In this document: positions 3,101 to 25,983 of the stretch, in pieces
Position numbering within the stretch: position 1 is the stretch's first letter
How the letters are laid out: every line of letters begins with the position of its first letter
DNA from: Candidatus Acidiferrales bacterium
GTDB lineage: Bacteria > Acidobacteriota > Terriglobia > Acidiferrales > UBA7541
Length of the DNA stretch: 64,000 nt
Assembly (NCBI GenBank): GCA_049591475.1
Contig: JBAWEZ010000066.1
Span: forward strand, 99,790 to 163,789
Reading direction: 5' to 3'
Translations under genes and position numbers: made by a program
The notes under the pieces: model-generated
Seen by the model: only the letters and a program-made list of their open reading frames with translations
Databases searched by the model: none
What the model was told of the DNA's origin: nothing

Positions 3101-3116
3101 CCGTGTACGTTAACGG
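3101..3116 (+). promoter_or_regulatory. operator-like imperfect palindrome, site 1 (upstream of the GH3 gene)
   Basis: CCGTGTACGTTAACGG, centred on CG, 60 nt upstream of the TTG start at 3177. It shares the exact 16-mer CGTGTACGTTAACGGC (3102-3117) with site 2. Confidence 0.45.
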
Positions 3117-3176
3117 CAGTGGTAGAGTACCACGCGAAATTCAGTTTTCAATCTTAGACATGTTGGGGAGGGTCCC

Positions 3177-9765: not shown

Positions 9766-11502
9766 GTGCCGAGATTCTCGCGGAGAGAGTGGATGAAGGC
9801 CGCCGCGTCGGCAGGCGCCGCATTGGCGGCTGGCTCGCTGAGCGCATGGAGCAAAGCACCTTCTGCTCTAGGGACCGTTGCAGCTAAGGACTCCGCGCAG
9901 CAAGAACATTCGCTGGCCAAAATCCAATTTTCGCTGGAGAGTCTTCCGTTTCGCTTGGATTCCGACGAAACCTTGAACTTTCCGCACGCGCCTGCAACGA
10001 TGGCCGGTGGCGTAGCCGTCTTCGATTACAACAAAGATGGCAGGCCCGATATTTTCTTCACCAACGGCGCCAATGTCGAGACGCTCAGGAAAGATTCTCC
10101 GAGGTTCTACAACCGCCTTTTTCGCAACGACGGTAAAGGTTCATTCACGGACGTAACGGAGGCGGCTGGACTCACCGGCACCGGCTATGATATTGCTGCG
10201 GCTGTCGGCGATTATGACAACGACGGCTACCCGGATCTGTTCGTCGGTGGCGTGCACGGCACCACGCTCTACCACAACAATGGGGATGGGACATTCTCCG
10301 ACGTCACTGCCAAGGCGGGCCTCGGCAGTGTCATCGATCCGCAGTACGGCCCTCTCTGGAGAGCAGCGGCCGCCTGGGTGGACGTGAACAACGACAGCCT
10401 CCTCGATCTTGTGGTGATCAATTACCTACAGTGGGACTTGAAAACCGAGAAGCTGTGTCCGTTCATGGGCGCGAATGACTACTGCAGCCCCCGCTTATAC
10501 AAAGGCCAGCCGAACCAGTTGTTTCTGAACCGCGGAGACGGAACCTTCGAAGACGCCTCGGAAAAATGGGGCCTTCGCTCTCACGTCGGCAAAGGAATGG
10601 GAGTGGGAGTTGCTGATTACGATCTCGATGGCCGCCCCGATTTATTCGTCACGAACGACACCTCCTATAATTTCCTTTTTCACAACACCGGACAAAAGTT
10701 CGAGGAAGTTGCCTTTCAGGAAGGTGTCGCACTGCAAGAAACTGGCGATTTCATCTCCGGCATGGGAGTGGATTTTCGCGACTGTAACAATGATGGCTAC
10801 CCGGACATTATCTTCGTCGCTCTGAATAATCAGACGTTTCCTCTGTTTCTGAATAAGGCCGGAAAAGGTTTCGACGAAGCTGGCTTCCAGAATGGACTGC
10901 GTGAGTTAACGCGCTCGATGTCCGGGTACGGACCCGGATTGTTTGATTTTGACAACAACGGTTGGAAGGATCTGTTCGTTTCCAGGGGGCACGTCGAAAG
11001 GATCCCGACAGCTTCTTACCAGATCGATCAATACAACACCGTGTTCCGTAATCCCGGTCCTGCAGGAAAATGGCAAGCGCTGACCGCGGAAGCCGGATTG
11101 ACGGCTTCACCACGCGCGCGCCACCGTGGCTGTGCCTTTGGAGACTTTGACGGGGACGGTCGCATCGATGTGGTCGTTACGGCGCTTGGCAGAGAACCGG
11201 AAATCTGGATGAATCGCTCGCCGAACGCCGGTCATTGGCTGGCCATCGCATTGGAGGGCACGAAGAGCAACCGCGATGGAATCGGCGCCCGTATTAAAGT
11301 GCTGACTACGCAAGGAGCACAGTTCAACCACATGACCGCGAGCGTCGGGTACGCTTCATCGAGCCACGGACCAGTGCACTTCGGCCTTGGCGGGGATCGT
11401 AGGGCGAAGCTTGTGGAGATCCATTGGCCCTCGGGCACCGTTCAGGTGCTGCACGACGTGGCCGGTGACCGAGCGCTAAACGTCAAGGAATCTGCCACCT
11501 AG
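9766..11502 (+). CDS. CRTAC1-family protein (FG-GAP/VCBS repeats + UnbV/ASPIC C-terminal domain) with Tat-type signal
   Basis: Repeated ...DYNxDGxxDLFv.N...LYxNnGDGTFxDVT... units. C-terminal HWLAIALEGTKSNRDGIGARIKV...GYASSSHGPVHFGLG (UnbV/ASPIC). The ORF is open from 9661; an in-frame GTG at 9766 gives VPRFSRREWMKAAASAGAALAAG (the twin-arginine motif SRRxWMK). Start is uncertain (9661/9766). Confidence 0.85.
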   Translation: MPRFSRREWMKAAASAGAALAAGSLSAWSKAPSALGTVAAKDSAQQEHSLAKIQFSLESLPFRLDSDETLNFPHAPATMAGGVAVFDYNKDGRPDIFFTNGANVETLRKDSPRFYNRLFRNDGKGSFTDVTEAAGLTGTGYDIAAAVGDYDNDGYPDLFVGGVHGTTLYHNNGDGTFSDVTAKAGLGSVIDPQYGPLWRAAAAWVDVNNDSLLDLVVINYLQWDLKTEKLCPFMGANDYCSPRLYKGQPNQLFLNRGDGTFEDASEKWGLRSHVGKGMGVGVADYDLDGRPDLFVTNDTSYNFLFHNTGQKFEEVAFQEGVALQETGDFISGMGVDFRDCNNDGYPDIIFVALNNQTFPLFLNKAGKGFDEAGFQNGLRELTRSMSGYGPGLFDFDNNGWKDLFVSRGHVERIPTASYQIDQYNTVFRNPGPAGKWQALTAEAGLTASPRARHRGCAFGDFDGDGRIDVVVTALGREPEIWMNRSPNAGHWLAIALEGTKSNRDGIGARIKVLTTQGAQFNHMTASVGYASSSHGPVHFGLGGDRRAKLVEIHWPSGTVQVLHDVAGDRALNVKESAT

Positions 11503-11537: not shown

Positions 11538-12686
11538 TCACTGACTGCCAGTGACGAGATGTTTTTGCGCCTTCGCCGCGAGTTCTTGAGTCTGCTTTTC
11601 TCTAAGTTCACGAACTTTCGCGAACTCCTTCTCAGCCGCAGCCGTATTCCCCATGAGTTGATCAATGCGACCGATTCGGAAGTGTGCGTCCGTTTGGTTG
11701 GGGTCGAGCTCGACGGCACGTCGAAGGGCCGACAGCGCCTCTGGGAATTTCTTTTGATCCATAAGAATGCTGCCGGTGTCGAGGTAGGCCAAACGGTTGC
11801 CCTTTTGCAGCTGAGCCGCCCTGCGCAACAATGGAAGGGCCTTGGCGTAATCGCCCTTCTGCATGGCAATGTCTCCGAGATATGCCAGGGCCTGAGGGTT
11901 GCCTGGGACGATCGTAAGTTCGGCGTTGAAAGCGGCAACCGCGTCATCGAATCTTTGGGCTTTCCAGAACAGATAACCCAGCGCGAAGTGCAGTTCAGGT
12001 TGACGCGGAGCAAGGCTGATCGCCTTCTGAAACTCGACGATGGCGGCCGCAGTGTTTCCTTCGCCGTCCATCGCCTCGCCGGTGAACTTGTCCACGGCCC
12101 AGGAATTCGGATTGAGCTGCTGAAGCTTTCGAAACTCCCGCAGCGCGCACGGATAATCCTTCGCTAAGAGACAACTCTGGGCAAGCGTCTGATGAAGTTC
12201 CGTATTGGCCGCATCGGATGCGGCAGCCACAGCGAGATACTTGGAAGCCTCTGCAAAGCGCTTCGCTCCATAACAGCTTAAACCCAAAAGCGTGGCTGCC
12301 TGCAGGTTGTTTGGACTGGCAGAAAGGGCCGCGCGGAGTGGTGGAATCGCGGCTTCGAAATGGCCTTGCTTGAATTCCGCAAGGCCCAAATCGATCTGAA
12401 CCCCGGGCAAGCTCGGATTCAGAGCGATCGCTTTCCGATAGGCTGAGGTGGCTTCGCCGTACTTCTGCTGCTTTGATAGAACCAGCCCTAGGCTGGCGAA
12501 GGCTGCGGCGTCGTGCGGGCTTTGCTGCGTGACCGCCTCCCACGCCTGGGCAGCCTCCACAAGCTTTCCTTGTTTCTCTAATGCCGCTGCGGAGGCCGGA
12601 GTCGCGGTTTGAGCACGCAAAGATGGCACAAGTGTCATTGCGACGGACAAAAAGGCGATGAGCCGGACATTCCTGCAACCGCTCAT
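11538..12686 (-). CDS. secreted tetratricopeptide-repeat protein, downstream partner of the TonB-dependent receptor
   Basis: 382-aa ORF. Signal peptide ...LVPSLRAQ. About 8-9 TPR units (for example AWEAVTQQSPHDAAAFASLGLVLSKQQKYGEATSAYRKAIALNP). Starts 97 nt after the receptor stop on the same strand. Confidence 0.85.
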   Translation of the reverse strand: MSGCRNVRLIAFLSVAMTLVPSLRAQTATPASAAALEKQGKLVEAAQAWEAVTQQSPHDAAAFASLGLVLSKQQKYGEATSAYRKAIALNPSLPGVQIDLGLAEFKQGHFEAAIPPLRAALSASPNNLQAATLLGLSCYGAKRFAEASKYLAVAAASDAANTELHQTLAQSCLLAKDYPCALREFRKLQQLNPNSWAVDKFTGEAMDGEGNTAAAIVEFQKAISLAPRQPELHFALGYLFWKAQRFDDAVAAFNAELTIVPGNPQALAYLGDIAMQKGDYAKALPLLRRAAQLQKGNRLAYLDTGSILMDQKKFPEALSALRRAVELDPNQTDAHFRIGRIDQLMGNTAAAEKEFAKVRELREKQTQELAAKAQKHLVTGSQ

Positions 12687-12783: not shown

Positions 12784-15700
12784 TTAGAATGCGAGCTTCG
12801 CGCCGAACTGGAACTCGCGGGGAGTCCATGCCGAGTTTGTCAAGCCGAAATTGGGATCTCCGACAGTGGTGTCCACCCCGTTCATTTGCGTGTGGTTCCA
12901 GAGGTCGAACGCGTCCACGCGGACCTGGAAGTTCAGGCGCTCAGTGATGGCAAAGGTCTTGAACAGAGACATATCCCAGTTATCGCGGCCTGGCCCCCAA
13001 GCACCGTCGTGCTGCAAGTCACCGAAAGTCGCAACGCTCTCTCCCGGGAGATCGTTGATGGCAAATGAAGCAGGGTTTAACCACTGGATGGTACTCAGCC
13101 CGCTCGTCAGTTTTGCCGCGGTTTTCGGATAGCTAATGGGCCCGACCAAGTTCGGGCGAACCGCACAGTTTGGAACGGCAGCGCAAACGGTCTGACCAGT
13201 GACTCCCAGATCTATGGGTACCCCTGTCTCCATGGTCACGATCCCAGCAACCGACCATCCACCGAGCGTCCCGCTCACCAACCGGCTGGCCCCGTGGAAG
13301 AAGGGAAGATTGTAGACAAAGTTGGTGAAAAAGATGTTCTGACGGTTGTCCTGCGCAGGGCCGTAGTCGAATCTCCAGCCCGCATAAGGATTCGACACGT
13401 TGTCGAAGTCGCCGCCGTCGCCATTGTTCAACGTTGGATCGTTCGCATGCGCGAAGGTGTAAGCTCCCTGCAACGTGAGGTTACGGTACTGAGAGCGCAG
13501 CGACACCTGCAACGAGTTGTAGTTCGACCTGGCATCGTTTTGCGCCACGAGAATGCTGGAGTACCCAAGATACGGCTTGTATAGGTTGGCCAAGCCGTTA
13601 TAGCCGCCGGTGGTCGTGAAGAACGACGGCAACATGCTCTCGGGGGGCAGATTGACTTCCGTTTTTTCGCTTTCGTTGCGACCCACGTTTCCGACGTAGG
13701 CTACCGACAGAACAGTCTGACTGCTGAGCTGCTGTTGGATGCCCGCGCTGTACTGGTAGCTGGTTGGAATGTTGTAGTCATTTGAGTTGAGCATCGAGAT
13801 TGGGTTCACCGTGACTGGAAGGGTGGCTGGGCTGAAGGTCACGTTGTTCTCGTCGATGCCGACGTGAGGATCTGAAAGAGAAACGTTGGAAATAGAGGGA
13901 TTGCCGCCAAACAGGTTATTGGCGCCGGATTGATACATGTCGTTCCCTTGGATACGCTCGTAGAACATGCCAAATCCAGCGCGTAAGATGGTTTTACCCC
14001 GCCCCGTGAGGTCGTAAGCAAAGCCCACCCGCGGGGCGAAGGTGTCCCAGTGGTTCTTTACCATAGAGCCCGTTTGTTTCAGGCCGTTGTCGTAGGAGAG
14101 AAGGCCGTTCAGCGCCGGATTGGGGCCGACTGCCAAGAAGGGGTTGGCACCAGTGCAGCTCGAGTTGGGAATACCGGCTCCGGAGCAAATCTCAGTGCCG
14201 TTGGCATTGGCGAAGCCGATCCCGCTGCCAGGGGCAAAGGCCGCTGCGGCACCAGCCGCGTCCCAAAGGTTAAAGTAGAAATTCGACATCTGGTTATTGA
14301 TTTCGTCCGTGTGCGGCATACCCTCCCAGCGCAGACCAAGGTTCAGGGTCAAGCGCGAATTCACACGCCAGTTGTCTTCTGCGTAGACATCCCAAGTAAC
14401 ACTGTTCCACTGGCGCGAGTCCTCAAGGGCAGCTTCGCTATACTGACTCGACAACCCCAGCAGGTAATCGGCGAAGTCATAGCCAGTGAAGCTGCCGTTG
14501 AAAGCAAAATCTCCTTCGGGGCTATCTTGCAAGGGCTGCAGCTTGCGGAAATTGGCCCAGCCAAAGCCGAACTTGAACTGGTGCGGGCCTTTGCTCCAGG
14601 AAACATCATCAGTAATATTGTAATCGTTGGCTACGTTGTCCCACGCTCCCCAGTTGTTGCTGAAAGTCGCCCCAGTCTTGCCGCCAAGGCTGATGATGGG
14701 CAGAACGTCGGCGTTGACGGTGCCGGTGAACAGCCTATTCTGCTGGAAGCCTGATGCAGACGAAATATTCCAGATTCCGCTCGGGTCCATGTTGATGCGG
14801 TTGCCGTCATAATTGAAGGCTACCTCGTTCAGCAACGTGGGGTTGATGACGTCCGTCAAATGGACGACAGCTTGGTAGGATGGGTTACCAAAGGTGTCCG
14901 AGCTCGTCGGCAGATTCGCCGAGCTCCAGCGGGTCGGTACATCGGTCTGTGATACCTGCTCCGAGATCCAGCTCCCGAAAATGGAATAGCGGCTGTTGAA
15001 GGTGTGATCGATGCGGACGATTTCTTCCTTCACGGAGGTCGGCGCATTGGGACCGCCGACAAACTGGTCACCGAGTGTCTCCGCCGGAAAAATGCCCGCT
15101 TTCAGCAATGCTGCAGCATTGGGATTGATCAGAGCCGGATTGATCACGTTCTGCTGCCCGTTGTAGACGAATGGAACGCCGGTTGCGTCAGGTACGCCGC
15201 CGGTGCAGCCGCTGAGAGCTTGGCCTGCCGCTGCAAATTCAGCGATGACGGCATTGGACACTTTACAAGCAAAGGGAGCCTGAAGTGCTGCAAAGCCAGG
15301 CTGGAGCAGCCCGCCAAAAGCCATGGCGTCGCTGAGGTTGGCTCCGTTTGCGAGGTTGGAGTAGTCATCGGCGAAGGGAACGCTTTGTTGAATCAAGGAA
15401 CCCAGGATTTGCCGCCGCCATTCCATGTTGTAAAAGAAGAAGGTCTTCGGATTGCTAGTGTGGTGAAATTCGACCGGCCCTCCGAGATTGAAGCCCCAGA
15501 GGTTGTAGCGGTACTCCGAAACTTTCTGCGGGGCCGGGTTGAAATAATTGCGCGCATCGAAAGCGTTGTTGCGACCGAACCACCAAGCGGAGCCGTGAAG
15601 CTGCCTAGTGCCGGACTTGACGACCATGCTGGTGGTTGCGCCAGATTCCGTGCCGTATTGTGCCGTGTAATTGGAGGTCATCACGCGGAGTTGGGACAGC

Positions 15701-16389
15701 GCTTGCTCGGAGGGCATGACAATGGCTCCGGAGCCGCCGCGGTCGTCCGCCTCGCCACCATCGATCAAGAACAACTGATGAGCAACGCGCTGGCCGTTAA
15801 AGCTAATGGTATCGTCGCCGCCCATCGACGTGGGCACTTGAACGTCGGCGTTATCGGCGGAGGCGCCTGGCACCAAGGTAACCAGGTTATATAGGCTCTG
15901 CCCGCTTTCCTGAAGGGCTTCAATCTGCTTGCCGGTGATCAAGGTACTGATTTCGTTGCTATCGGATTGGACTGCGATAGTGTTCGCGTGAACGGTAACT
16001 TCTTGCGTCGCGGCACCAATCTGAAGCTGGAAGTCCACGCGTCGGCGGGCGCCGACTTCGAGCACGATATTGCTTTGCTCGATAGCTTTGAAACTCGGCG
16101 CTGTAGCCTGCACAGTGTACTCGCCAATATGAAGCGAAGGAGCCACATAGTCGCCAGAGCTATCCGTCACCATATGAGTCACCAACCCTGTATCGACATT
16201 GGTGATGGTGATGGCGGCATTGGGAACTGCCGCACCGGAGGGATCAGTTACCGTGCCGACTATCGTCGCTTCTTGCGCGCTTGCCAAGAGCGGCAGGCCG
16301 AACAACAGCACGGCCAGCCCAAGTAAGCGAAGGATCCAGTTCCGGTTGATGTGATTATCGACCGACCGCAACAAACCATAGGCCTTCAT
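12784..16389 (-). CDS. TonB-dependent receptor with N-terminal carboxypeptidase-regulatory-like domain
   Basis: 1201-aa ORF with a GAAGGAGG RBS. Signal peptide ...LPLLASAQ. Ig-like domain ATIVGTVTDPSGAAVPNAAITITNVDTGL, then a plug region and a long beta-barrel ending in ...FQFGAKLAF (terminal aromatic). Confidence 0.9.
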   Translation of the reverse strand: MKAYGLLRSVDNHINRNWILRLLGLAVLLFGLPLLASAQEATIVGTVTDPSGAAVPNAAITITNVDTGLVTHMVTDSSGDYVAPSLHIGEYTVQATAPSFKAIEQSNIVLEVGARRRVDFQLQIGAATQEVTVHANTIAVQSDSNEISTLITGKQIEALQESGQSLYNLVTLVPGASADNADVQVPTSMGGDDTISFNGQRVAHQLFLIDGGEADDRGGSGAIVMPSEQALSQLRVMTSNYTAQYGTESGATTSMVVKSGTRQLHGSAWWFGRNNAFDARNYFNPAPQKVSEYRYNLWGFNLGGPVEFHHTSNPKTFFFYNMEWRRQILGSLIQQSVPFADDYSNLANGANLSDAMAFGGLLQPGFAALQAPFACKVSNAVIAEFAAAGQALSGCTGGVPDATGVPFVYNGQQNVINPALINPNAAALLKAGIFPAETLGDQFVGGPNAPTSVKEEIVRIDHTFNSRYSIFGSWISEQVSQTDVPTRWSSANLPTSSDTFGNPSYQAVVHLTDVINPTLLNEVAFNYDGNRINMDPSGIWNISSASGFQQNRLFTGTVNADVLPIISLGGKTGATFSNNWGAWDNVANDYNITDDVSWSKGPHQFKFGFGWANFRKLQPLQDSPEGDFAFNGSFTGYDFADYLLGLSSQYSEAALEDSRQWNSVTWDVYAEDNWRVNSRLTLNLGLRWEGMPHTDEINNQMSNFYFNLWDAAGAAAAFAPGSGIGFANANGTEICSGAGIPNSSCTGANPFLAVGPNPALNGLLSYDNGLKQTGSMVKNHWDTFAPRVGFAYDLTGRGKTILRAGFGMFYERIQGNDMYQSGANNLFGGNPSISNVSLSDPHVGIDENNVTFSPATLPVTVNPISMLNSNDYNIPTSYQYSAGIQQQLSSQTVLSVAYVGNVGRNESEKTEVNLPPESMLPSFFTTTGGYNGLANLYKPYLGYSSILVAQNDARSNYNSLQVSLRSQYRNLTLQGAYTFAHANDPTLNNGDGGDFDNVSNPYAGWRFDYGPAQDNRQNIFFTNFVYNLPFFHGASRLVSGTLGGWSVAGIVTMETGVPIDLGVTGQTVCAAVPNCAVRPNLVGPISYPKTAAKLTSGLSTIQWLNPASFAINDLPGESVATFGDLQHDGAWGPGRDNWDMSLFKTFAITERLNFQVRVDAFDLWNHTQMNGVDTTVGDPNFGLTNSAWTPREFQFGAKLAF

Positions 16390-16762
16390 GACGCCTCCTT
16401 CGGCTTTTCACAAGTCCGTAACCATCCGCCCATATATCCCGCGGCGCTAATACCCCGCCCCAGAAACTCAGCGCCCGCATTGGCGGTTACCTAGATGCGT
16501 TGATCCATTGCTGCTGGATTCTCCCTCGGATCGCTGACAACCGAAATCACCCCAATGCGTGCCATCGACTACACACAACTCAGCACGAAAACCAATCCGG
16601 CGACCGAAAAGGCATCGGCGTCACACGCTTGAGCACCGACTGTCCGCCAATCCGTGAGATTTAATACGACCCGTGAACTATCAGAAAAACAGGGCCACCA
16701 GGTACCAATTGCAATTACCCGAAATGACCGAGCCCCGCTTGCCCCCAAGTAAAATTCCCACC

Positions 16763-16778
16763 GCCGTTAACGTACACG
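16763..16778 (-). promoter_or_regulatory. operator-like imperfect palindrome, site 2 (TonB-dependent receptor promoter)
   Basis: The minus strand reads CGTGTACGTTAACGGC, identical to 3102-3117 and in the same orientation relative to the downstream gene. It overlaps the predicted -10 hexamer TACGTT. Confidence 0.45.
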
Positions 16779-16796
16779 AGGTTACAGGATTGTCAA
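16769..16796 (-). promoter_or_regulatory. sigma70-like promoter candidate for the TonB-dependent receptor/TPR operon
   Basis: The minus strand reads TTGACA (16796-16791), a 16-nt spacer, then TACGTT (16774-16769). This is a pattern match only. It would imply a ~370-nt leader. Confidence 0.3.
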
Positions 16797-16961
16797 GCGT
16801 TTTCTTGGAATTCTATCGAGGCGATTCAAATAGTGCGCTTGAAATAGAAAGATCCGCAATATAGATTGGGTCAATGGGCTTTCCCGCTGAGGTGATTTTG
16901 GGACGCCGAGATCTCGCTCCGGGGGGCAGGAGAGAGAATTGATTCACAAGAACCGAGAAAG

Positions 16962-18062
16962 CTAGGCAGCGCCGTCGTTGCGGCCAAGTGTGTCGGGCAA
17001 ACTCGTATCGGCGAGCCTAATCTCCCGAAAAAGATGCAGGTTGGATGACATCACCACTCCTGGACTGAGGTGCAGGGCGGGCGGAAAGCTCACTTTGCCG
17101 GTGAGATTGTCTGCCATCAAACGCACCGCAATCTGGCCCTGGCGATGGGGATGCTGGTAAATAGACGCGGCGATTGTTCCTTTTTTGAAGTACGGCGACA
17201 TTTCGAGAAACAGGTCCGTTGTAATCAGTTTTACTTTCCCGCTGAGCTTCCGAGCACCGAGCGCCCGGCACACCGGCAAACAGTTCACGGTGTTGACGTA
17301 GATGCCAGCAAGGCTAGGAATGCGGCGAAGCAAATCGAAGGTTTTCTGAAAGCTCTCGTCTTCTTCTTCGTGCCCTTCGATGACCGCCGCGATTTTTCCG
17401 CCCATGCAGTGCTTTGGAAACGCCTTCGAGAAACCGTCCGTTTTCTTGCGGTGGTCTTCGGCAGTCAGCATGCCCGCCACGATGGCCACTTTTGAGCCCG
17501 CCGGGACGAATTTCCCCATCAGTTCACCTGCCAAGCATCCGTTGAGGTACGGTTCGACGCAGACAACGCTGGAACGCCGGCTTTCCGGTGCATCCGTCGA
17601 GACGCAGAGGACGCGGATCCCCTTCGCTTCGGCGTCATCGATCAGATGCTTCAATTCTTTAGGATTGCCCGCCGTCAGAATGATCCCATTGACGCCCTGA
17701 TCGGCGAGTTGCCTGAAGGCCTCAGTGTCCCCCTCACCAAGCGCATGAACCGGACGGTGCACGAAATCAACGCCGAGCTGCGAAACCTGCTTCGCCTCTT
17801 CAAGAACGCCGCTCCAGAGTTGGTCATAGAAGAAATGAATCTCACGCGGGATGCACACGCCGATGCGTGCCCCCGCGCGCGTCACCGACAGGGTTCGCGC
17901 CGCCAAATTCGGCGTGTAGCCAATCTGCCGCGCGATCTGCAAGATGCGCTCGCGCGTTTTCTCCTTGATTCCGCCGCGCCCATGTAGCGCGCGATCAACG
18001 GTGCCAATGGAAACATTGGCAATTTGCGCGATCAGATGGATTCCGCGATGCTGCTTGGGCAT
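16962..18062 (-). CDS. LacI-family transcriptional regulator
   Basis: HTH IHLIAQIANVSIGTVDRALHGRGGIKEKTRERILQIARQIGYTPN, followed by a periplasmic-binding-protein-like sugar-binding core. The ORF is open to 18215, but ATG 18062 (MPKQHRG...) puts the HTH at the usual position. That start also leaves the operator-like site at 18148-18163 upstream of the CDS. ATG 18125 is the alternative. Confidence 0.85.
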   Translation of the reverse strand: MPKQHRGIHLIAQIANVSIGTVDRALHGRGGIKEKTRERILQIARQIGYTPNLAARTLSVTRAGARIGVCIPREIHFFYDQLWSGVLEEAKQVSQLGVDFVHRPVHALGEGDTEAFRQLADQGVNGIILTAGNPKELKHLIDDAEAKGIRVLCVSTDAPESRRSSVVCVEPYLNGCLAGELMGKFVPAGSKVAIVAGMLTAEDHRKKTDGFSKAFPKHCMGGKIAAVIEGHEEEDESFQKTFDLLRRIPSLAGIYVNTVNCLPVCRALGARKLSGKVKLITTDLFLEMSPYFKKGTIAASIYQHPHRQGQIAVRLMADNLTGKVSFPPALHLSPGVVMSSNLHLFREIRLADTSLPDTLGRNDGAA

Positions 18063-18147
18063 ATTGGCCGTTCCGAAGTCGGCGCTTATGTTATTCCTAT
18101 CCTGGATTTTTGTCGTGTGTTTCATTTGGGCGTAGAACGCGCATCCG

Positions 18148-18163
18148 CCGTGTACGATAACGA
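18148..18163 (+). promoter_or_regulatory. operator-like imperfect palindrome, site 3 (upstream of the LacI gene, candidate autoregulation)
   Basis: CCGTGTACGATAACGA, 14/16 identical to site 1. It lies 86 nt upstream of ATG 18062 of the LacI-family gene. Confidence 0.4.
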
Positions 18164-18491
18164 TAAAATGCTCCCAGGATTGAGCGCCGTCTTGAGCTGC
18201 ATCACAGGAAACCATCAGGCGAGCATATGACCAGAGAGAAACGGGGCCGCGAAACGTGCGAGCTGCGGCAACCCACTCGCGGTACTCTTGCCGTTGCTTA
18301 TCGACCTAATTTAACTGGGAGCCACGCCCAAAGCGGCCTGGGTCTGGTGACACGCCAACGCGCTGTGCCAAGCCGGGCGTTCGATGGCTGCTTCTCGAAC
18401 TCCGTGCATTCAACTCTCAATTGACGTACGATGACTTTGCTGCTTTTGCTGTGCCGCCCCTCTTACTCGTTCGCGACGGAGGGATCCTCAG

Positions 18492-19487
18492 ATGTGGCGA
18501 TTGTCCGCGTTGTTCTTGGCTTCATTTACTCTGGTAGCCCACGCACAAATATCCGCGAACCAGGGAAACGAAACGCTGTGCACGCTGCAAGTGGACGTCG
18601 AGTCCGCGAATAAAGGGTTGCCTGCGTCCGGAGCGCGGGTCGAGATCTTTCAGGGGCTTGCCGGCGTTACGCCCTACCAAGTTAGCCTGACCAACTCGTC
18701 GGGCTGGGCTGAATTCGACAATTTACTGCCGGGAGATTATCGCGCCGAGGTATCAGGAGCGGGCATCGAAACCACCAATAGCGGAAACATTCACATCGAA
18801 AATGGCCGAGTTTTTCTGACCACGCTCGTTGTGGTTCGCGCAAGTACCGAAATCAATCCTGCAACGGTTCCATCGACGGGAACCGTGAGCGTCCGCGAAC
18901 TCAAGACTCCGAAGGGCGCTTCTGAAGAGCTGGCACGCGGCGACGCGGAGATGGAGCACAAACACTGGAAAAAGGCGGCCGACCACTTCAAAAAGGCCGT
19001 CTCAATTTACCCGCAGTATTCTTCGGCTTATTACAATCTTTCGGTCGCGTACTATCGAATGGAACAACCGGACAAACAACGCGAAGCCTTAAAGAAGGCG
19101 TTGGCTAGCGACAATCACTTCGTGCCGGCACTCGTCAGCCTCGCGCACATCCAATTCGCCGATCATAAACTTCCCAAAACCAGGGACCTTTTGAACGAGG
19201 CAATTTCGGCTGATCCGACGAATGTCGAAGCACTTGCGCTGCTCGTCCGAGTGGATTTTCTCCAGGGCCAATACCAGGAGACGATCGCCGATGCTGAGAG
19301 GGTGCACAGCCTACCTCACCAGGGTTACGCCACCGTGCACTACACCGCGGCAGCAGCCTATCAGCACCTGAACCGTATTCCCGAGATGATCGAGCAATTA
19401 CAAATATATTTGAAAGAAGATCCCACGAGCCCTAGCGCCAGCTACGTACGCCAGACCATCGCGGCACTGGAGAGCCGGCATCAATAA
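18492..19487 (+). CDS. secreted protein with CarboxypepD_reg-like Ig domain + TPR repeats
   Basis: 331-aa ORF. Signal peptide MWRLSALFLASFTLVAHAQ. Ig-like segment ARVEIFQG...TNSSGWAEFDNLLPGDYRAEV, then TPRs (AVSIYPQYSSAYYNLSVAYYRMEQPDKQREALKKALASDNHF...). Its 3' end overlaps the araB stop by 7 nt (convergent). Confidence 0.8.
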   Translation: MWRLSALFLASFTLVAHAQISANQGNETLCTLQVDVESANKGLPASGARVEIFQGLAGVTPYQVSLTNSSGWAEFDNLLPGDYRAEVSGAGIETTNSGNIHIENGRVFLTTLVVVRASTEINPATVPSTGTVSVRELKTPKGASEELARGDAEMEHKHWKKAADHFKKAVSIYPQYSSAYYNLSVAYYRMEQPDKQREALKKALASDNHFVPALVSLAHIQFADHKLPKTRDLLNEAISADPTNVEALALLVRVDFLQGQYQETIADAERVHSLPHQGYATVHYTAAAAYQHLNRIPEMIEQLQIYLKEDPTSPSASYVRQTIAALESRHQ

Positions 19488-21136
19488 TCAGAGGAGCAGT
19501 TCGGCGTTTTATTTCGTTCATGGCCGCTCCCGGAAAGTAATGAAGCTGGCTTCGCCCGGCTCGATGACGCTTGCTCCTCGGCGATGCAGATGATGGCGGG
19601 CAAGACGTCGCCGAACGCAGACTCACTCATGGGCTGGCCGAAATCGAAGTACAGCCTTTTATAAAGGCCGTAGAGCCGATCGTAAGTGACCTGTGCGGCA
19701 GGCTCGGGTTGGAAAACAATATGCGGCGGGCAAACGTTGCCCTGTGCTTCTTCGATCGTCCGAAAAGTGCGGGCAGCAAGAAACGCGAAAATAGCCGAGC
19801 CAAGGCTCGTCACTTTGCGGCTCGGCACAAGCACCGGACGGCCCAAGACATTTGCGTATACCTGGTTGAGGACAAGATTGCTCTGAGGAATGCCGCCGGC
19901 GTTGATGACGCGTTCGATGGTAATGCCGTGTTGAGCCATACGGTCGAGGATTATCCGCGTGTGGAACGCGGTGCCCTCAATGGCGGCAAATAGCTCGTCC
20001 TGGGCCGTGTGCTGGAGATTCCATCCCAACGTAACGCCGCGGAGATTAGGGTTGACGAGAACGGTGCGGTCGCCATTGTCCCACGACAATCGAAGCAAGC
20101 CCGTCTGGCCGGCACGGTACTTTTCAAGGCCCTCGCTCAATCGCGAGACGGACGTGGCGGCCCGGCGGGCGATGGCTTCAAAGATATCGCCGGTGGCGGA
20201 AAGTCCGGCCTCGATGCCGGTAAAGCCGGGGTGCACGCTTCCCTTCACCACTCCGCACAGGCCGGGCACCAGATTCGTTTGCTGGGAAATTCCGATGATG
20301 CATGTCGACGTGCCGATTACGTTGACGATGTCCTTTTCACGTGCTCCCGCGCCTATAGCATCCCAGTGAGCGTCGAACGCGCCCAGAGGGATCGGTATAC
20401 CCGCGCGCAACCCTAGCTTCGCTGCCCACGACGGCGAAAGCAATCCGGCAATTTTGTCGGAGGTCTCGTAACTTCCTTGGAGCTTTGCGCGGGCTCCGGC
20501 AAGCAGCGGGTCAACCTTAGTGAGGAATTCCTCGGGGGGAAGACCACCCATATCGGGATGCCAGAGCCACTTATGCCCCATCGCGCAGACGCTGCGCTTC
20601 GCGCGAGACGGCTCGGTGATGCCACAGAGCGTGGCCACCACCATGTCACAATGTTCGAACGCACTGGCGAACCGGCTGCGCTTGTCTGGGTTGTGCCTGA
20701 GCCAGTGCAGCAGCTTCGAGAAGCCCCATTCCGAGGAATAGACGCCCCCGCACCAGCGAATAGCTTCCAAGCCTTCGCGGTGTGCCATCGCCGTTATCTC
20801 GGCGGCTTCGGCCTTGGCACGATGGTCGCACCACAAGTAATACTCGCCGAGCGGAACCATGCCTGCGTCAACCGGAAGCACCGACGAGCCGGTCGTATCG
20901 AGAGAGATGGCTTCGACTGCATCGGGCGGGACGCTCGCTTCGCGAAGCGCTTCAAAAGTGGCAGACGCAAGAGCCCGCATATGGTCGTCATGCGATTGCG
21001 TGGCGTATTCGGGATCCTCACGCTTCCGGTGCAGAGGATACTCAGCCATGGCTGTACCTAGCAATCCACGCTCGCTATCGACCAGCGAGACGCGGACGCT
21101 CAAGGTACCAAAATCGACGCCAGCGACGATCGCCAT
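19481..21136 (-). CDS. araB: ribulokinase (FGGY family)
   Basis: From ATG 21136: MAIVAGVDFGTLSVRVSLVD... (AraB-type N-terminus), 551 aa. The 103-codon upstream extension in the ORF track (Arg-rich, no similarity) was rejected. It lies 17 nt downstream of the isomerase gene. Confidence 0.88.
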   Translation of the reverse strand: MAIVAGVDFGTLSVRVSLVDSERGLLGTAMAEYPLHRKREDPEYATQSHDDHMRALASATFEALREASVPPDAVEAISLDTTGSSVLPVDAGMVPLGEYYLWCDHRAKAEAAEITAMAHREGLEAIRWCGGVYSSEWGFSKLLHWLRHNPDKRSRFASAFEHCDMVVATLCGITEPSRAKRSVCAMGHKWLWHPDMGGLPPEEFLTKVDPLLAGARAKLQGSYETSDKIAGLLSPSWAAKLGLRAGIPIPLGAFDAHWDAIGAGAREKDIVNVIGTSTCIIGISQQTNLVPGLCGVVKGSVHPGFTGIEAGLSATGDIFEAIARRAATSVSRLSEGLEKYRAGQTGLLRLSWDNGDRTVLVNPNLRGVTLGWNLQHTAQDELFAAIEGTAFHTRIILDRMAQHGITIERVINAGGIPQSNLVLNQVYANVLGRPVLVPSRKVTSLGSAIFAFLAARTFRTIEEAQGNVCPPHIVFQPEPAAQVTYDRLYGLYKRLYFDFGQPMSESAFGDVLPAIICIAEEQASSSRAKPASLLSGSGHERNKTPNCSSDY

Positions 21137-21153
21137 GGACAAATTCCCCGACT

Positions 21154-22575
21154 CTAGTTGGAGTGCAAATACATATCCCAGCCGAGATACCGAGTGGCCG
21201 CTTCGTGGACGGCGGCGGCGACCGTAGAAAAGTTTGCCGCGACGTGGTGCTCGAAGCCGTTTTTGCAGATGTAATGGAGCAGTTCTTGCATATGGGGAAT
21301 TTCGACCACGCCGGCGCCACCGAAGGTTTCGAGCGGGTCGTCCGTGAAAGCGCCACCGCCCACGTAGCCCCGCATTCGTCCCGTGCGATCGTCGGTTGAG
21401 AAGCGGGCGAATGTCATCGCCCCAGGATGAACTAGCCCCACGCATGTGCCGTAGGTGTTCTCTTTGCCTACCGATCCCGCGATGATGGCCTGAAAATCCA
21501 TCTTCACAGTCTTCAAAAAATGTTTCGGGAGGTTACTGCAGTGGAAGCAAACGGCTTTGTTCGGATCGTCGCCGTAGTTGTTATTCCAGTCAAGCAGAGC
21601 ACTAGGAGTTTCCGAAGCCAGTCGGAGCACATGCATGCTGAGCACGCCGCAAATATCCACCTCGCACGCGCTGGACATCAGGCTATCGCTCATCATGCTC
21701 ATAATTGTGCAGGGAACGACACCTAGGTTCTCTTCGATGGAAGTCCAACATTGGACCGCGCTGATGGCCACGTCCGCCTGTTGCATCCATTCGTCGATCA
21801 CCGCGCCTAATTTAGCCATTTTGATCAGCGATTCATTGGGCACATCGTTCGTGGAGACATATTTTTCGATGGAGCGCAGCTTCGCTTGCACGGCTTCGTC
21901 GGCGTCTTTTCTCCGCGCGATACGGCCGATCACCTCGGACAGGTCCAGTGTCTCTACGGAAATTCCCTGCGACTCGAGAATCTTTTCGCTGTAGCGAACC
22001 GTGTTGAACGCCGCCGGCCGCGCGCCGATACTGCCGATACGAAGATTTTTCAGGCCCCGTATAATTCGGCAAACCGCCGCAAACCACTCCAAGTCCCGCT
22101 GGAACTCCGGCGCGCCGGGAATAACGGTGTGAGAGGACGTGAGCGAATATGGAATGCCGTACTGCATCAGATTGTTGCAGGCAGACATCTTGCCGCAAAA
22201 GCTGTCGCGCCGGTGGGTGATCGTCATCTTTGCCGGAGTATCCGGCGTGGCCTGGACCAGGACCGGAACTCCGAGCCGTGCCAGACGAAGAGTGTCCGCG
22301 ATCGCGCGTTCATCGCCGAAATTCGGCAGAGTGACAATTACTCCGTCAATCCGCTCAATGTTGGCGCGGAACAGATCCGCGCACCGCTTGGCTTCCTGGT
22401 GCGATTCGACAGCGCCGTGCCGGCTTTCCGTCGGTTCGAGCGCCACTACATCTATGCCGCGCGCCCCCAACGCTTGCATCATCTCTTTGCGCCCGGATTC
22501 CGCGAGGTGCCCGGGAAAGAATCCCCGGTTCCCCACGATAAGGCCCACCGTCATTCTCTTTTTGTCGTTCGCCAT
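21154..22575 (-). CDS. L-fucose/L-arabinose isomerase (FucI) family protein, probable L-arabinose isomerase of this operon
   Basis: 473 aa from ATG 22575 (MANDKKRMTVGLIVGNRGFFPGHL...). Segments RRDSFCGKMSACNNL, SACEVDICG and GFEHHVAAN resemble FucI-family sugar isomerases, not canonical AraA. Sandwiched between araD and araB. Confidence 0.75.
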   Translation of the reverse strand: MANDKKRMTVGLIVGNRGFFPGHLAESGRKEMMQALGARGIDVVALEPTESRHGAVESHQEAKRCADLFRANIERIDGVIVTLPNFGDERAIADTLRLARLGVPVLVQATPDTPAKMTITHRRDSFCGKMSACNNLMQYGIPYSLTSSHTVIPGAPEFQRDLEWFAAVCRIIRGLKNLRIGSIGARPAAFNTVRYSEKILESQGISVETLDLSEVIGRIARRKDADEAVQAKLRSIEKYVSTNDVPNESLIKMAKLGAVIDEWMQQADVAISAVQCWTSIEENLGVVPCTIMSMMSDSLMSSACEVDICGVLSMHVLRLASETPSALLDWNNNYGDDPNKAVCFHCSNLPKHFLKTVKMDFQAIIAGSVGKENTYGTCVGLVHPGAMTFARFSTDDRTGRMRGYVGGGAFTDDPLETFGGAGVVEIPHMQELLHYICKNGFEHHVAANFSTVAAAVHEAATRYLGWDMYLHSN

Positions 22576-22712
22576 TGATTCCCATTCCCTTACGGACAAT
22601 CGTTGTAACCGCGCCCGGCTCCTTCTTTGTCCGTTCTTATCAGGAGGCGCCGTGGTTCTCTGCGCCGAAGCATTCCTTCACTAAGAAGGAATTTAACGAT
22701 CTGGCAATCCCC

Positions 22713-23429
22713 TCAGTGCTTTCCGACAGTTTGTCCGTAATAAGCATCACGCCCATGCTTACGCAGAAAATGCTTGTCCCGCAGTGCATTCGAGAGAGGA
22801 CCTGCTTCCTCGGACAACTCGACCGTGTAGAATGCCATTCTCGCGACGGCTTCAAGGATCACCGCATTGTGTGCAGCGGCTGTCGCATTCTCTCCCCAAC
22901 AAAACGGGCCGTGGCCGCGAACCAAAACCGCGGGGATCGAGTCGGGATCGAGATGCTCGAACGTCCTGCAAATCGCCACACCCGTGTTTCGCTCGTAGTC
23001 TCGCTCGATTTCATCCTGTATCAGATGCTCGGTAACCGGAACAGCGCCGTGGAAGGAATCCGCATGGGTGGTTCCGAGGCAAGGAATCGGTCGGCCCGCC
23101 TGCGCCCAGGCAGTCGCAAATTCAGAATGCGTGTGAACGACACCGCCAATAGAAGGAAACTTCCGATAGAGCACAAGGTGGGTGGCAAGATCAGAAGACG
23201 GTCGGAGTTCGCCTTCCACGATGGCGCCGTCGAGGTTCGTAATCACCATATCCTCAGGCTTTAATTCGTCGTAAGAAACGCCGCTGGGCTTTATTACGAC
23301 ATAACCCTCATCTCGCGAAATTCCGCTGGCGTTACCAAAGGTATAGAGAACCAATCCCCGGCGAACAACTTCGAGATTGGCTTCAAGGACTTCCCGACGC
23401 AGATTCCCGAGCAGCATGGTGGTGGCCAT
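22713..23429 (-). CDS. araD: L-ribulose-5-phosphate 4-epimerase
   Basis: MLLGNLRREVLEANLEVVRRGLVLYTFGNASGISRDEGYVVIKPSGVSYDEL...GGVVHTHSEFATAWAQAGRPIPCLGTTHAD is collinear with E. coli AraD (MLEDLKRQVLEANL...). The start is ambiguous (TTG 23435, ATG 23429, ATG 23417). Confidence 0.9.
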   Translation of the reverse strand: MATTMLLGNLRREVLEANLEVVRRGLVLYTFGNASGISRDEGYVVIKPSGVSYDELKPEDMVITNLDGAIVEGELRPSSDLATHLVLYRKFPSIGGVVHTHSEFATAWAQAGRPIPCLGTTHADSFHGAVPVTEHLIQDEIERDYERNTGVAICRTFEHLDPDSIPAVLVRGHGPFCWGENATAAAHNAVILEAVARMAFYTVELSEEAGPLSNALRDKHFLRKHGRDAYYGQTVGKH

Positions 23430-23456
23430 ACTCAACTCATGGGCTGTTGCTTTTCA

Positions 23457-23470
23457 AGAAAACGTTCTCT
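23457..23470. promoter_or_regulatory. 14-bp near-palindrome AGAAAACGTTCTCT just upstream of araD (candidate operator)
   Basis: Centred on CG, with 6 of 7 arm positions complementary. It sits about 28 nt upstream of ATG 23429 and has a LacI/GalR-like AACGTT core. Confidence 0.25.
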
Positions 23471-23594
23471 CAAAACCAGAGACTGCTCAACTCGGCGATG
23501 CCCCGAAGGGATTCGATTGCCTTTGCCCAGTCGGCCTAAGTGAGTGTCGCAGTCAATCCCTGCCGGATAAACTGATTTCCGAGCGACAGCCGAG

Positions 23595-23624
23595 ATTTTG
23601 AAGGACACTCAAACACTTTGTCAA
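23595..23624 (-). promoter_or_regulatory. sigma70-like promoter candidate for the araD operon
   Basis: The minus strand reads TTGACA (23624-23619), an 18-nt spacer, then CAAAAT (23600-23595). Pattern match only. It would give a ~160-nt leader containing the palindrome at 23457-23470. Confidence 0.25.
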
Positions 23625-24049
23625 CAATCGGCGTTCGTCCTCTGCGGAATTCATTCCCGGAACTGGCGAATGCTTCAGATTGAAATAGGGCTAGGAGCTG
23701 GACCGGAATCACGTTGACAGCGCCGGTATTCGAATTCAGAGTTTCGGGTAAGCTCGTCTGACTTCAGAAAAACCCCCACTCGATGAAGGCTCGCCCCCAA
23801 ACGGTACCGCATGCGCACCAGGTAGGAAAATTTCTTGGCCGCCGCGTACAGCGGATCGCTCCACCAGAGTCTCCGATGGAAATGAACCTGCATCTTATTC
23901 CGGGGGAACGAAGCGCTCGACTAGCGCGCGCCAGAAAGTCGACTGCCCACGTTGTAAGTTCGCTACCCCTATATCTGCTTTCCCCGGATCCTTTTGTCAT
24001 ACGAGCCGGCCAGGCTGAGCTGTCGAGGGCCTGGACGATATGTCTTCGG

Positions 24050-24280
24050 TCAAGAATTTCGAGGCCGATCGCGGGTGGGCGGAAAGCGAAGGCAGAAAAA
24101 AAGCCCGAGCACGGATAGAAGGCCGCCCCACCATATGCTCGCGTGCAAGTGGTAGAGCACGACGGGATGAGCCGGTGGATGCCCCAATTCATACAGGCCG
24201 GCGCCCAGAATCAGCACGCCATTGACCAGCAAGGATATGCCGATGAAAAACCAGATCGATATTGAGCCGCCTGTTTTCAT
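24050..24280 (-). CDS. small two-helix membrane protein (hypothetical), translationally linked to the SSS symporter
   Basis: 76 aa from ATG 24280 (MKTGGSISIWFFIGISLLVNGVLILGAGLY...IWWGGLLSVLGLFFCL). It starts 5 nt after the symporter stop. Two clear hydrophobic helices. No family recognised. Confidence 0.5.
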   Translation of the reverse strand: MKTGGSISIWFFIGISLLVNGVLILGAGLYELGHPPAHPVVLYHLHASIWWGGLLSVLGLFFCLRFPPTRDRPRNS

Positions 24281-24285
24281 TGTTC

Positions 24286-25983
24286 TCACCAGAAATAAAT
24301 ATTGAGCCCAATCAATACGACAGCGACAATCACGGCCCAGAACGCCGGCTTGTGAAACATCGACGCCCTCTCTTCGTGAGGAATATCCGTCGCGCCGTAA
24401 ACCAGTCCGGTCAGCTCCGCGATGGGCTGGGCCTTGGTCGACAGGCTCACCACTACCGTCACGAGGACGCAGAGGATCCAGCACCACAGGGCCCTATACA
24501 TGTCTTCCGCCATCGTCTTCGCGTGACTCGAAAGCGCCACATACGACAGCGCAGCCGGATTAATCCGCACCCATGCCCACATACCGACCGAGGACACCGT
24601 CCCTACGAGGAGGCCCCAGAACCCTCCCGCCGGGGTCGCCCGCTTCCACAGCATTCCCAAGATTACAGTCCCGAACAGTGGCGCTATGAAGAAGCTGAAC
24701 AATGCTTGCACGTAGTCCATAATGCTCAGGAAGTGCATCGCGAAATACGCTGTCCCGATGCTGATCAGCACTCCGACGATCGTGGACCACCTGCCCATCA
24801 GCACGTAGTGATTGTCCGTCGCGTTTTTCTTGATGAGCGCGCGATAAATGTCGTAAGTCCACACTGTGGCAAAAGCGCTCACGTTTCCCGCCATCCCGGA
24901 CATGAATCCGGCGACCAACGCCGTGATCCCGAGTCCCAGCAAACCGGGACCGCAATAGCGCGCCAGCATCAGTGGCAGCACCTGGTTGTAATTGTGCCCT
25001 CCTGCCGCCGCAACGCTCGCCCCGGTCAATCCCGGAAGCACAGCCAGCGCGATCAGGCCCGGCAAAATCACGATGAACGGCACCAGCATCTTGAACCCCG
25101 CACCGATAATGGGCGCCATTTTTGCCGCGCGCAGATCCTTCGCCGCCAACACGCGCTGCACCACTAGAAAATCCGTCGTCCAATAGCCGAAGGAAATGAC
25201 GAACCCCAGCCCGAACACAATGCCCGTCCAATGAATCCCCATAGGGTTGCTACTGAACGATCCCAGAGTGCTCCACAAATGCGTGTATTGACTCGATGCG
25301 TTGTGCGTGATGCGCGCTTTGAGGTTGTCCCACCCACCTACTTCGATCAACCCGAGAATCGGAATCAATAGCGCGCCCGCCCAGATCAGGAAGAATTGCA
25401 GGACTTCGTTGAAGATCGCCGAACGGAGTCCTCCCAGCGCAACATAAATGGCCACGGTGAGTGCCGATATCCAGATGCTGAAGTGAATGCTCCATCCCAG
25501 CACCACATTCATGGTCACTGCCATTGCGTACATGTTGATACCGCTCATCAGCACGGTCATGAACGCGAACGAAATGGCCGAAAGCGCCCGGGTGGGTTCG
25601 CCGAACCGCAACTTGAGGTATCCCGGAACCGAATGTGTTTTGGAAATGTAGTAGAACGGCATCATCACCAGCGCGAGGAATAGCATCGCGGGAATCGCGC
25701 CGATCCAATACCAGTGCGTTGCCAGAATGCCGTATTCATAGGCCGCCGCCGCCCAGCCCATCAATTCGAGAGCTCCGAGGTTGGCGGAAAGAAAACTCAG
25801 CCCCGCCACCCACGCCGTCATTTCCCTGCCGGCCATGAAAAAATCTTCGCCGGTATTCGACCGCCCTTTGAGATAAAACCCAATACCCAACACCAGCACG
25901 AAATAGAAAATGATGATCGCCATGTCTACCGGCGACAAGCGGACTAACCGCGATGCGGAGACCAAACTTAAAACTGCGGTCAT
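24286..25983 (-). CDS. sodium:solute symporter (SSS family), probable pentose/hexose transporter
   Basis: 565-aa ORF, roughly 13-14 hydrophobic helices, with SSS-type N-terminal segments (FFMAGREMTAWVAGLSFLSANLGALELMG). Located between galM and the ara genes. Confidence 0.88.
   Translation of the reverse strand: MTAVLSLVSASRLVRLSPVDMAIIIFYFVLVLGIGFYLKGRSNTGEDFFMAGREMTAWVAGLSFLSANLGALELMGWAAAAYEYGILATHWYWIGAIPAMLFLALVMMPFYYISKTHSVPGYLKLRFGEPTRALSAISFAFMTVLMSGINMYAMAVTMNVVLGWSIHFSIWISALTVAIYVALGGLRSAIFNEVLQFFLIWAGALLIPILGLIEVGGWDNLKARITHNASSQYTHLWSTLGSFSSNPMGIHWTGIVFGLGFVISFGYWTTDFLVVQRVLAAKDLRAAKMAPIIGAGFKMLVPFIVILPGLIALAVLPGLTGASVAAAGGHNYNQVLPLMLARYCGPGLLGLGITALVAGFMSGMAGNVSAFATVWTYDIYRALIKKNATDNHYVLMGRWSTIVGVLISIGTAYFAMHFLSIMDYVQALFSFFIAPLFGTVILGMLWKRATPAGGFWGLLVGTVSSVGMWAWVRINPAALSYVALSSHAKTMAEDMYRALWCWILCVLVTVVVSLSTKAQPIAELTGLVYGATDIPHEERASMFHKPAFWAVIVAVVLIGLNIYFW

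Follow-up and report, generated by a model that had tools for sequence, protein, structure and literature searches.

We analyzed a 64-kb window of DNA (64,000 nucleotides in all; positions 99,790 to 163,789 of contig JBAWEZ010000066.1) from a Candidatus Acidiferrales bacterium. The window contains a gene for a LacI-family regulator and three copies of a short, palindrome-like sequence, which we call O1, O2 and O3. A previous inspection of the letters, the sequence-only reading, had proposed that the copies are operators of the LacI/GalR type common to the regulator gene, the promoter of an outer-membrane receptor gene and a glycoside hydrolase family 3 (GH3) gene. Here we describe the genes and sites, their conservation in related genomes, and the regulatory system that they suggest.

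The window starts within xylA (11-1036, minus strand), which encodes a xylose isomerase of the Arthrobacter type and is truncated by the window start. Its product is 82% identical (tblastn) to a protein from a related locus, L018 (L-numbers are labels of fetched loci; see below), and the L018 XylA protein scores 527 bits against TIGR02631 (cut-off 447). xylA is downstream of xylB (1082-2587, minus strand), a xylulokinase gene (TIGR01312, 556 bits; cut-off 380). Divergent from xylB, across O1, is the GH3 gene (3177-5540, plus strand). Its product has Pfam GH3 N, C and Fn3-like domains, and its top NCBIfam matches are beta-xylosidase models, with scores under the equivalog cut-offs. The xylB-GH3 intergenic region is ~590 nt in the window and ~125-260 nt in relatives. 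An open reading frame (ORF) at 2608-3045 (145 amino acids) was considered as a regulated gene and rejected as spurious; it had no Pfam or NCBIfam match and no homolog in any fetched locus.

The receptor gene (12784-16389, minus strand) encodes a protein of 1201 amino acids with a CarboxypepD_reg domain and a large beta-barrel (PF13620 and PF25183), resembling acidobacterial TonB-dependent receptors. Pfam gave no match to a Plug domain in this protein. A TPR gene (11538-12686, minus strand) follows downstream. The regulator gene (16962-18062, minus strand) encodes 366 amino acids, comprising a helix-turn-helix (HTH) domain and a Peripla_BP_4 sensor. Divergent from it, across O3, is a gene for a protein with CarboxypepD_reg and TPR domains by Pfam (18492-19487, plus strand). 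The ortholog of this gene is downstream of a site in L001-L003, and it is the likely target of O3 in the window clade.

We found the three copies at the positions given in the sequence-only reading. The 16-mer CGTGTACGTTAACGGC occurs exactly at 3102-3117 (plus strand) and 16763-16778 (minus strand). Candidate operator O1, CCGTGTACGTTAACGG, is at 3101-3116 (plus strand; core 3102-3115), between the divergent xylB-xylA and GH3 genes, and the TTG at 3177 comes 60 nt later. Candidate operator O2, CGTGTACGTTAACGGC, is at 16763-16778 (minus strand; core 16765-16778), in the receptor promoter, between the regulator stop codon and the receptor gene. Candidate operator O3, CCGTGTACGATAACGA, is a 14/16 copy at 18148-18163 (plus strand; core 18149-18162), between the divergent LacI and 18492 genes and separated by 85 nt from the ATG at 18062. 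The central CG described previously is present, and the sequence is symmetric about it at 10 of 14 core positions (12 of 16 including the flanks). The description as an imperfect palindrome needs one correction: this is a conserved pseudo-palindrome rather than a degenerate perfect one.

Statistics from the window alone are only suggestive, as had been recognized from the start, and the comparative data decide. At up to three mismatches, the 16-mer had 3 matches in the window (0.33 expected), and 3 matches were reached in 2 of 100 shuffles. A weight matrix trained solely on sites of other genomes scored O1 at 28.8 bits, O2 at 25.7 bits and O3 at 23.7 bits. The next match in the window (20312-20329) scored 15.7 bits and is in a coding region, and the best matches in 20 random windows scored 4.1-15.4 bits. 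We took this fourth match, at the edge of the null range, as chance; the window therefore contains exactly three sites.

The motif is conserved at equivalent places near orthologous regulator genes. Loci were fetched with the 366-aa regulator protein (one genome per species) and not with the motif. This yielded 80 loci (1.49 Mb), all from metagenome-assembled genomes (MAGs) of Acidiferrales/Acidoferrum/Sulfotelmatobacter-type Terriglobia, with regulator orthologs that were 75-98% identical. The 14-mer CGTGTACGTTAACG was found in 101 exact copies (0.009 expected) and 157 times with at most one mismatch. Upstream of the LacI gene, 68/78 loci had a site no more than 300 nt away (chance, 0.002 per locus). 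On the downstream side, 49/76 loci had one no more than 700 nt away, in the interval that separates the LacI stop from the receptor ortholog (chance, 0.0045 per locus). At least one flanking site was present in 71/80 loci. More than 25 loci had an O1-type motif upstream of a GH3 ortholog, and the divergent gene there was usually xylB or xylA.

Conservation was confined to the site. Information was near maximal at the 14 core positions and had dropped to approximately zero by 3 nt outside the core in both directions; the symmetry extended to 16 bp only through a weakly preferred c at -1 and g at +1. The O3 block was identical in L001-L003, in surroundings that were ~75% identical and contained indels. 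Scoring placed 42 sites inside ORFs, almost all of them because of start extension to the longest ORF or small spurious ORFs, and after discounting these artefacts nearly all sites were intergenic. This phylogenetic footprinting, in which the motif recurs at equivalent places in most of the 80 orthologous loci, strongly supports the proposal of a common operator.

The regulator has the features expected of the LacI/GalR family. The LacI-type HTH (PF00356, E = 7e-12) covers residues 11-52 of the 366-aa protein, corresponding to residues 62-103 of a longer ORF that starts at 18215. The headpiece aligns to those of CcpA, LacI, PurR and CytR, and the hinge YTPNLAARTLS aligns, at the sequence level, to the CcpA hinge YRPNAVARGLA. 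The recognition helix VSIGTVDRALHGR and the hinge YTPNLAAR-x-LS were invariant in 80/80 orthologs, matching the invariant operator. The sensor domain belongs to PF13407 (Peripla_BP_4, E = 4e-46), and its sequence matches in the PDB were sugar-binding proteins and LacI-family regulators; the best match was 6GQ0, whose origin could not be traced. Judged by these sequence-level features, all of which it has, the protein is a canonical member of the family. Two further observations concern regulator genes elsewhere. One contig (CAWFTQ010000004.1; L060 and L074) encodes two regulator paralogs with the same recognition helix, ~13 kb apart, with operators beside one of them only, which raises a question of cross-talk. 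In L122, a LacI homolog (6-1043) near two operator copies has an in-frame stop (…VCVP*QIAY…) and is possibly a pseudogene or the product of a sequencing error.

The preference for the short start codon (18062) over the long one (18215) was independently supported. All 80 orthologs begin at the short Met, the Pfam HTH begins only at residue 62 of the long ORF, and 1-nt indels upstream of the short Met break the reading frame in close relatives (two 1-nt deletions in L001). By this comparison of coding sequences, the start at 18215 is wrong.

We found that the motif and a single recognition helix occur together in very distant LacI proteins. A motif-first scan of metagenomes for the exact 14-mer gave at least 120 loci. 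Among 120 loci listed, 37 had homologs of xylA, xylB, GH3, GH67, receptor or LacI genes within 1.5 kb, and 31 encoded a LacI protein in which the helix is exactly SIGTVDR, in most cases no more than 300 nt from the motif. A different helix of the form x-S-x-x-TV[SD]R was encoded by none of these 120 loci. Among the matches listed, identity of the SIGTVDR proteins to the window protein ranged from 82% down to 21-29% and the GC content of their loci from 28 to 66%; the remaining loci were mostly of low GC content and resembled chance matches. The distant members have different neighbors (SusC-like receptors, GH2, DUF5107-TPR and FGGY kinase), and the DNA specificity therefore appears to be older than the xylan function.

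A search starting from the transcription factor gave a similar picture. The search covered four Cytophagales (Dawidia, Chryseolinea and Chryseosolibacter) related to one of the distant members, in which the helix is SVGTVDR. In three of the four, CGTGTAC-containing sites were 110-150 nt upstream of the regulator gene, paired 21 bp apart. The fourth, without nearby sugar genes, had no CGTGTAC-containing site. Exact 21-bp pairs (center to center) were present in L195 (7404-7438), L201 (~5846-5880), L204 (~5855-5889), L203 (3007-3041 and 5869-5903) and L130 (231-265), loci that represent Cytophagales and one high-GC lineage. In many of these pairs the two sites make up an inverted repeat (14-7-14) whose outer halves co-vary, whereas Acidiferrales promoters have single sites. 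The 14-7-14 arrangement suggests a dimer of dimers.

The genes next to the sites point to the use of xylan and xylose. Across the loci, orthologs of the window GH3 and of the window receptor were downstream of sites, as were genes for a GH3+PA14 enzyme nearest to the Xyl3A xylosidase, a GH67 alpha-glucuronidase and an aldose 1-epimerase. The regulator gene itself was downstream of a site in 8 loci. Divergent from GH3-class sites was either xylB (17 loci), scoring above its NCBIfam cut-off, or a 390-aa protein scoring above the TIGR02631 cut-off for xylose isomerase. In the window clade, the CarboxypepD_reg-TPR gene replaces GH3+PA14 as the regulator-divergent gene, and the site is kept. The link between O1 and GH3 made in the sequence-only reading was supported, but O1 also faces the divergent xylB-xylA operon, which had been overlooked and which identifies the system as one for xylose and xylan. 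By gene content this is a xylan/xylose-utilization regulon, with regulation itself being what we infer from the sites, so that D-xylose or xylo-oligosaccharides would be the likely effectors. Other sugar genes in the window have no operator (19481-27742 and 41049-48079); they include genes for an FGGY kinase, an L-fucose-isomerase-like protein and an SSF symporter. The gene for a GH127 enzyme (41049-43526) is likewise operator-free and outside the regulon.

The sites are within or next to predicted core promoters. For GH3, an extended -10-like element found by eye, TGgTAGAGT (3120-3128, plus strand), would place the O1 core at approximately -33 to -20. The predicted receptor promoter (16769-16796, minus strand) consists of a -35 hexamer TTGACA (16796-16791), a 16-nt spacer and a -10 hexamer TACGTT (16774-16769), with an A-rich tract upstream. 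This -10 falls inside O2. The overlap proposed for this site was thus reproduced, with the operator supplying the putative -10. A generic promoter scanner made no call at the O2 promoter because TACGTT matches TATAAT at 3/6 positions. At O3, a putative -10-like TAAAAT (18164-18169, plus strand) abuts the operator, points toward 18492-19487 and is partly kept in L001-L003.

Orthologous loci contained conserved promoter-like hexamers at characteristic distances from the motif. In the GH3 class, TG-n-TATAGT-ACCA(C/T)G starts 6-7 nt past the motif. In the receptor class, AAAAAATGCTTGACA is upstream of the motif by 12 nt (window clade) or 24-27 nt (others). In the regulator-divergent class, TGcTATACT comes 4 nt past the motif and is directed away from the regulator. 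Of 154 non-redundant sites, 68 were followed at a distance of 4-7 nt by TA[TGC]A[GC]T (in 51 cases with the TG of an extended -10), and a further 32 had TTGACA 12 or 24-27 nt upstream. These positions, in the -35/-10 spacer, on the -10 or in the start region of predicted promoters, fit repression by occlusion and not activation.

Several features of the leaders and promoters were also seen. The receptor leader is 374 nt in the window (16390-16762, minus strand) and ~270-380 nt in L002-L005; in most other loci the receptor start codon is just 35-60 nt past the operator. The leader contains an invariant block, CCTGTTTTTCTGATAGTTCA (16674-16693 in the window, minus strand). Folding of this leader was no better than that of shuffles (z = +0.66) and gave no sign of an RNA switch, and an Rfam scan of the whole window matched no family. 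We also rejected a second operator, TGGTA-N3-TACCA, over the GH3 -10: the left arm was not conserved across GH3-class sites, and the conserved part was just TATAGTACCA(C/T)G. After this promoter, 40-55 nt past GH3-class sites (L008, L012, L016, L020 and others), is a leader block, ATT(G/T)CAAG(G/C)A. It precedes different genes (GH3, aldose epimerase and the regulator) and may belong to a portable module of promoter and leader, as its ribosome-binding region. The window GH3 has GGAGGG in place of this block. At the receptor promoter of Sulfotelmatobacter-like loci (L039, L040, L054, L061 and L070; ~11364-11389, differing by locus), the site is within a 6-bp-periodic run, CGTGGT CGTTAA CGTTAA CG(A/T)AAA CG, that contains three overlapping motif registers.

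The operator is asymmetric, and the asymmetry is conserved. In the 1.49 Mb, the 101 exact copies have the form CGTGTAC|GTTAACG. The perfect palindrome CGTTAACGTTAACG had 21 exact copies, each of them in the receptor promoter of a Sulfotelmatobacter-like locus, and the doubly strong palindrome CGTGTACGTACACG had none. Substitutions clustered in the right half, at positions 9-12, and CGTGTAC was almost unchanged. By lineage, the second half was GTTAACG, GATAACG, GCAAACG, GTAAACG, GTACACG or GCGCACG, with CGTGTAC constant. The simplest reading would be one strong and one weaker half-site, as in the operators of Cra and in lacO1. The invariant CGTGTAC half was promoter-distal in all four promoter classes. 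This orientation may be functional; the probability of such a bias by chance is ~1/8, and we note it without making a claim, as it could be chance.

Taken together, these findings make it highly probable that the three copies are operators of a LacI-family repressor encoded at 16962-18062. The proposal of an operator common to the regulator gene, the receptor promoter and GH3 is supported by the orthologous placement of the sites, the invariant helix, and the co-occurrence of motif and helix in distant LacI proteins. In the mechanism that we propose, a repressor dimer would bind the 14-16-bp pseudo-palindrome cCGTGTAC|GTTAACGg, with hinge-helix leucine L58 touching the central CpG. Each site is predicted to be within or against a core promoter, and bound repressor would shut out RNA polymerase. 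O1 would occupy the space that separates the extended -10 of GH3 from its -35 region and would have xylB-xylA on the opposite side; O2 would cover the -10 of the outer-membrane receptor/TPR operon; and O3 would be against the -10-like element directed at the CarboxypepD_reg-TPR gene. An effector, most likely D-xylose or a xylo-oligosaccharide, would occupy the periplasmic-binding-protein-like sensor and free the DNA. The regulon would comprise the uptake receptor, GH3 xylosidases, GH67 alpha-glucuronidase, mutarotase, xylA and xylB, and sometimes the regulator.

Some observations weigh against this interpretation. O2 is 374 nt from the receptor start codon, and the usual range for LacI-family operators is 30-140 nt (PMC4052901). 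For O3, the distance to the best LacI promoter candidate is ~75 nt, with the site on the upstream side. The conserved asymmetry of the operator is not predicted by a simple symmetric homodimer model. The generic promoter/terminator scanner called none of the promoters discussed here; the elements were read by eye from conserved hexamers. The related loci are from MAGs and are phylogenetically non-independent, and the public sequencing runs that matched the window were DNA metagenomes only, with no RNA run among them. Finally, the window aldose epimerase gene (26375-27742) and GH3+PA14 gene (45389-48079) have no site, and membership of the regulon therefore differs among genomes. The product of this GH3+PA14 gene and the regulated paralog found in other genomes share 49% identity.

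We considered three other explanations for the motif. Another transcription factor, with its gene in some other place, might bind the motif, or the LacI protein might be an activator at some of the sites. Conserved asymmetry and a constant orientation at four promoter classes would be unusual for a symmetric repressor dimer, and the operator was assigned to the LacI protein from sequence. We nevertheless regard this explanation as unlikely. The motif flanks the LacI gene in 71/80 genomes and tracks SIGTVDR in very distant homologs, with any other LacI helix type in none of the 120 motif-first loci listed, and the sites are not at the -41 or -61 positions typical of activators. Still less probable is that the motif is a promoter element, recognized for example by an alternative sigma factor, or an element of the leader RNA. 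The motif does keep a constant orientation toward the downstream gene, and in the window clade the candidate -10, TACGTT, is inside it. However, the offsets vary with promoter class (4, 5, 6 or 7 nt before a -10-like hexamer, and 12 or 24-27 nt after TTGACA), and in two classes the motif is upstream of the -10 and hence untranscribed. The lack of an Rfam match in the window and the folding of the receptor leader also argue against an RNA element.

A repeat without function, arisen by chance or left over from a duplicated or mobile segment, was a legitimate concern in the window alone, where about one exact shared 16-mer is expected and shuffles sometimes gave as many matches as were seen. It is hardly credible in view of the related loci, and we regard it as already refuted: the number of exact copies is more than 100 where 0.009 were expected, the flanks are unconserved, nearly all sites are intergenic, and the same positions are occupied in most of the genomes. 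A repressor encoded by the adjacent LacI gene and acting through these sites accounts best for the data.

Autoregulation through O3 is the least secure part of the sequence-only reading in the window. The candidate LacI -10 is TAACAT (18088-18093, minus strand), a tentative reading by eye that would center O3 at approximately -75. Autoregulation by simple occlusion is not evident here because the -10-like TAAAAT that abuts O3 faces 18492 and this LacI -10 puts O3 so far upstream. The idea fares better elsewhere. In 8 other loci a GH3-type operator-promoter is immediately upstream of the regulator gene and directed toward it, and autoregulation is likely there, to judge from this arrangement. 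Site 3 might instead serve only the divergent promoter (that of CarboxypepD_reg-TPR here and of GH3+PA14 in most relatives), with the regulator being constitutive. Most loci have TGcTATACT 4 nt past the equivalent site, directed away from the LacI gene, as TAAAAT is on the plus strand in the window. Hexamers at the equivalent places of the LacI promoter in other loci are TAAAAT, TAAGAT or TAGAAT; TAAGAT and TAGAAT are 35-55 nt beyond the operator, and with such candidates (TAACAT in the window) the operator would be at approximately -57 to -75. These promoter assignments are predictions, a repressor between close divergent promoters often acts on both, and the 8 loci with an operator-bearing promoter before the LacI gene speak for autoregulation. 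We think that exclusive use of site 3 by the divergent promoter is a serious possibility that falls somewhat short of probable.

If these interpretations are correct, this is the first sequence-defined regulon (operator, regulator and targets) for xylan and xylose use in Acidiferrales-type Terriglobia, which are abundant in soil and have almost no genetics. In these uncultured soil Acidobacteria, the neighboring LacI-type repressor very likely binds DNA at the repeated sequence of 14-16 bases. At ~26-29 bits, the 14-mer is specific enough for regulon prediction straight from MAGs and metagenomes. The pairing of one helix (SIGTVDR) with one operator across distant LacI proteins provides a clean case for the LacI-family recognition code and possibly an orthogonal repressor/operator pair for engineering. 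More speculatively, and with considerable doubt, the LacI subfamily with S(I/V)GTVDR and Peripla_BP_4 may have kept one DNA specificity between Acidobacteriota and Bacteroidota while sugars and targets changed, with an intrinsically asymmetric operator made of the invariant CGTGTAC and a lineage-specific half. If so, a symmetric homodimer would read two non-equivalent half-sites. No new kind of mechanism is revealed. Of interest to specialists are an operator that is both rigid and asymmetric, and the fact that a single recognition helix accompanies it in different phyla.

The proposed system resembles several known ones. In function, its predicted regulon of xylose catabolism and xylanolytic genes parallels that of the LacI-type XylR. 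Control of TonB-dependent transporters for xylo-oligosaccharides in Xanthomonas was reportedly described by Dejean et al. in 2013. XylR of Caulobacter crescentus and Xanthomonas represses xylA, xylB and xylan-degrading enzymes and is released by xylose, and its xyl-box is TGGTAGCGCTA(A/C)CA (PMC10380989). The xyl-box is unrelated in sequence to CGTGTACGTTAACG. At 3 mismatches it had 2 matches in the window (1.69 expected), neither of them near regulon genes. Like the operators of Cra (FruR) and lacO1, the site has one near-invariant half (CGTGTAC here) and another that varies between lineages; unlike them, the 'weak' half is frozen in the Acidiferrales, and CGTGTACGTACACG is never present. As in Bacteroidota polysaccharide utilization loci controlled by SusR, hybrid two-component systems or extracytoplasmic function (ECF)/anti-sigma pairs, an outer-membrane receptor and glycoside hydrolases for one glycan are combined, and distant SIGTVDR/SVGTVDR LacI proteins adjoin SusC/SusD pairs in Cytophagales. 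In contrast to those regulators, the one described here is a predicted cytoplasmic one-component repressor without sensing in the periplasm.

The closest comparison is with LacI/GalR pairs such as E. coli LacI-lacO, PurR and CcpA-cre. Shared features are an N-terminal HTH, a leucine hinge helix, a sensor resembling type-I periplasmic binding proteins, and an even-length operator with a central CG that overlaps promoters. Even-length operators with a central CG were found for 1173 of 1303 LacI-family regulators in a survey that did not include Acidobacteria (PMC4052901). The system differs in its recognition helix, SIGTVDRALH instead of the usual S-x-x-TVSRVLN type, in its best sensor match (Peripla_BP_4), and in an operator that is consistently asymmetric and almost invariant, apart from the perfect palindrome CGTTAACGTTAACG that stands in at the receptor promoter in ~20 loci. 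None of the solved structures has this recognition helix, and in the searchable literature we found nothing on the motif, on the peptide of the helix or on a LacI xylan regulon in Acidobacteria. Among the known systems, this one belongs to an ordinary class of gene switch and is notable chiefly for its rigid conservation.

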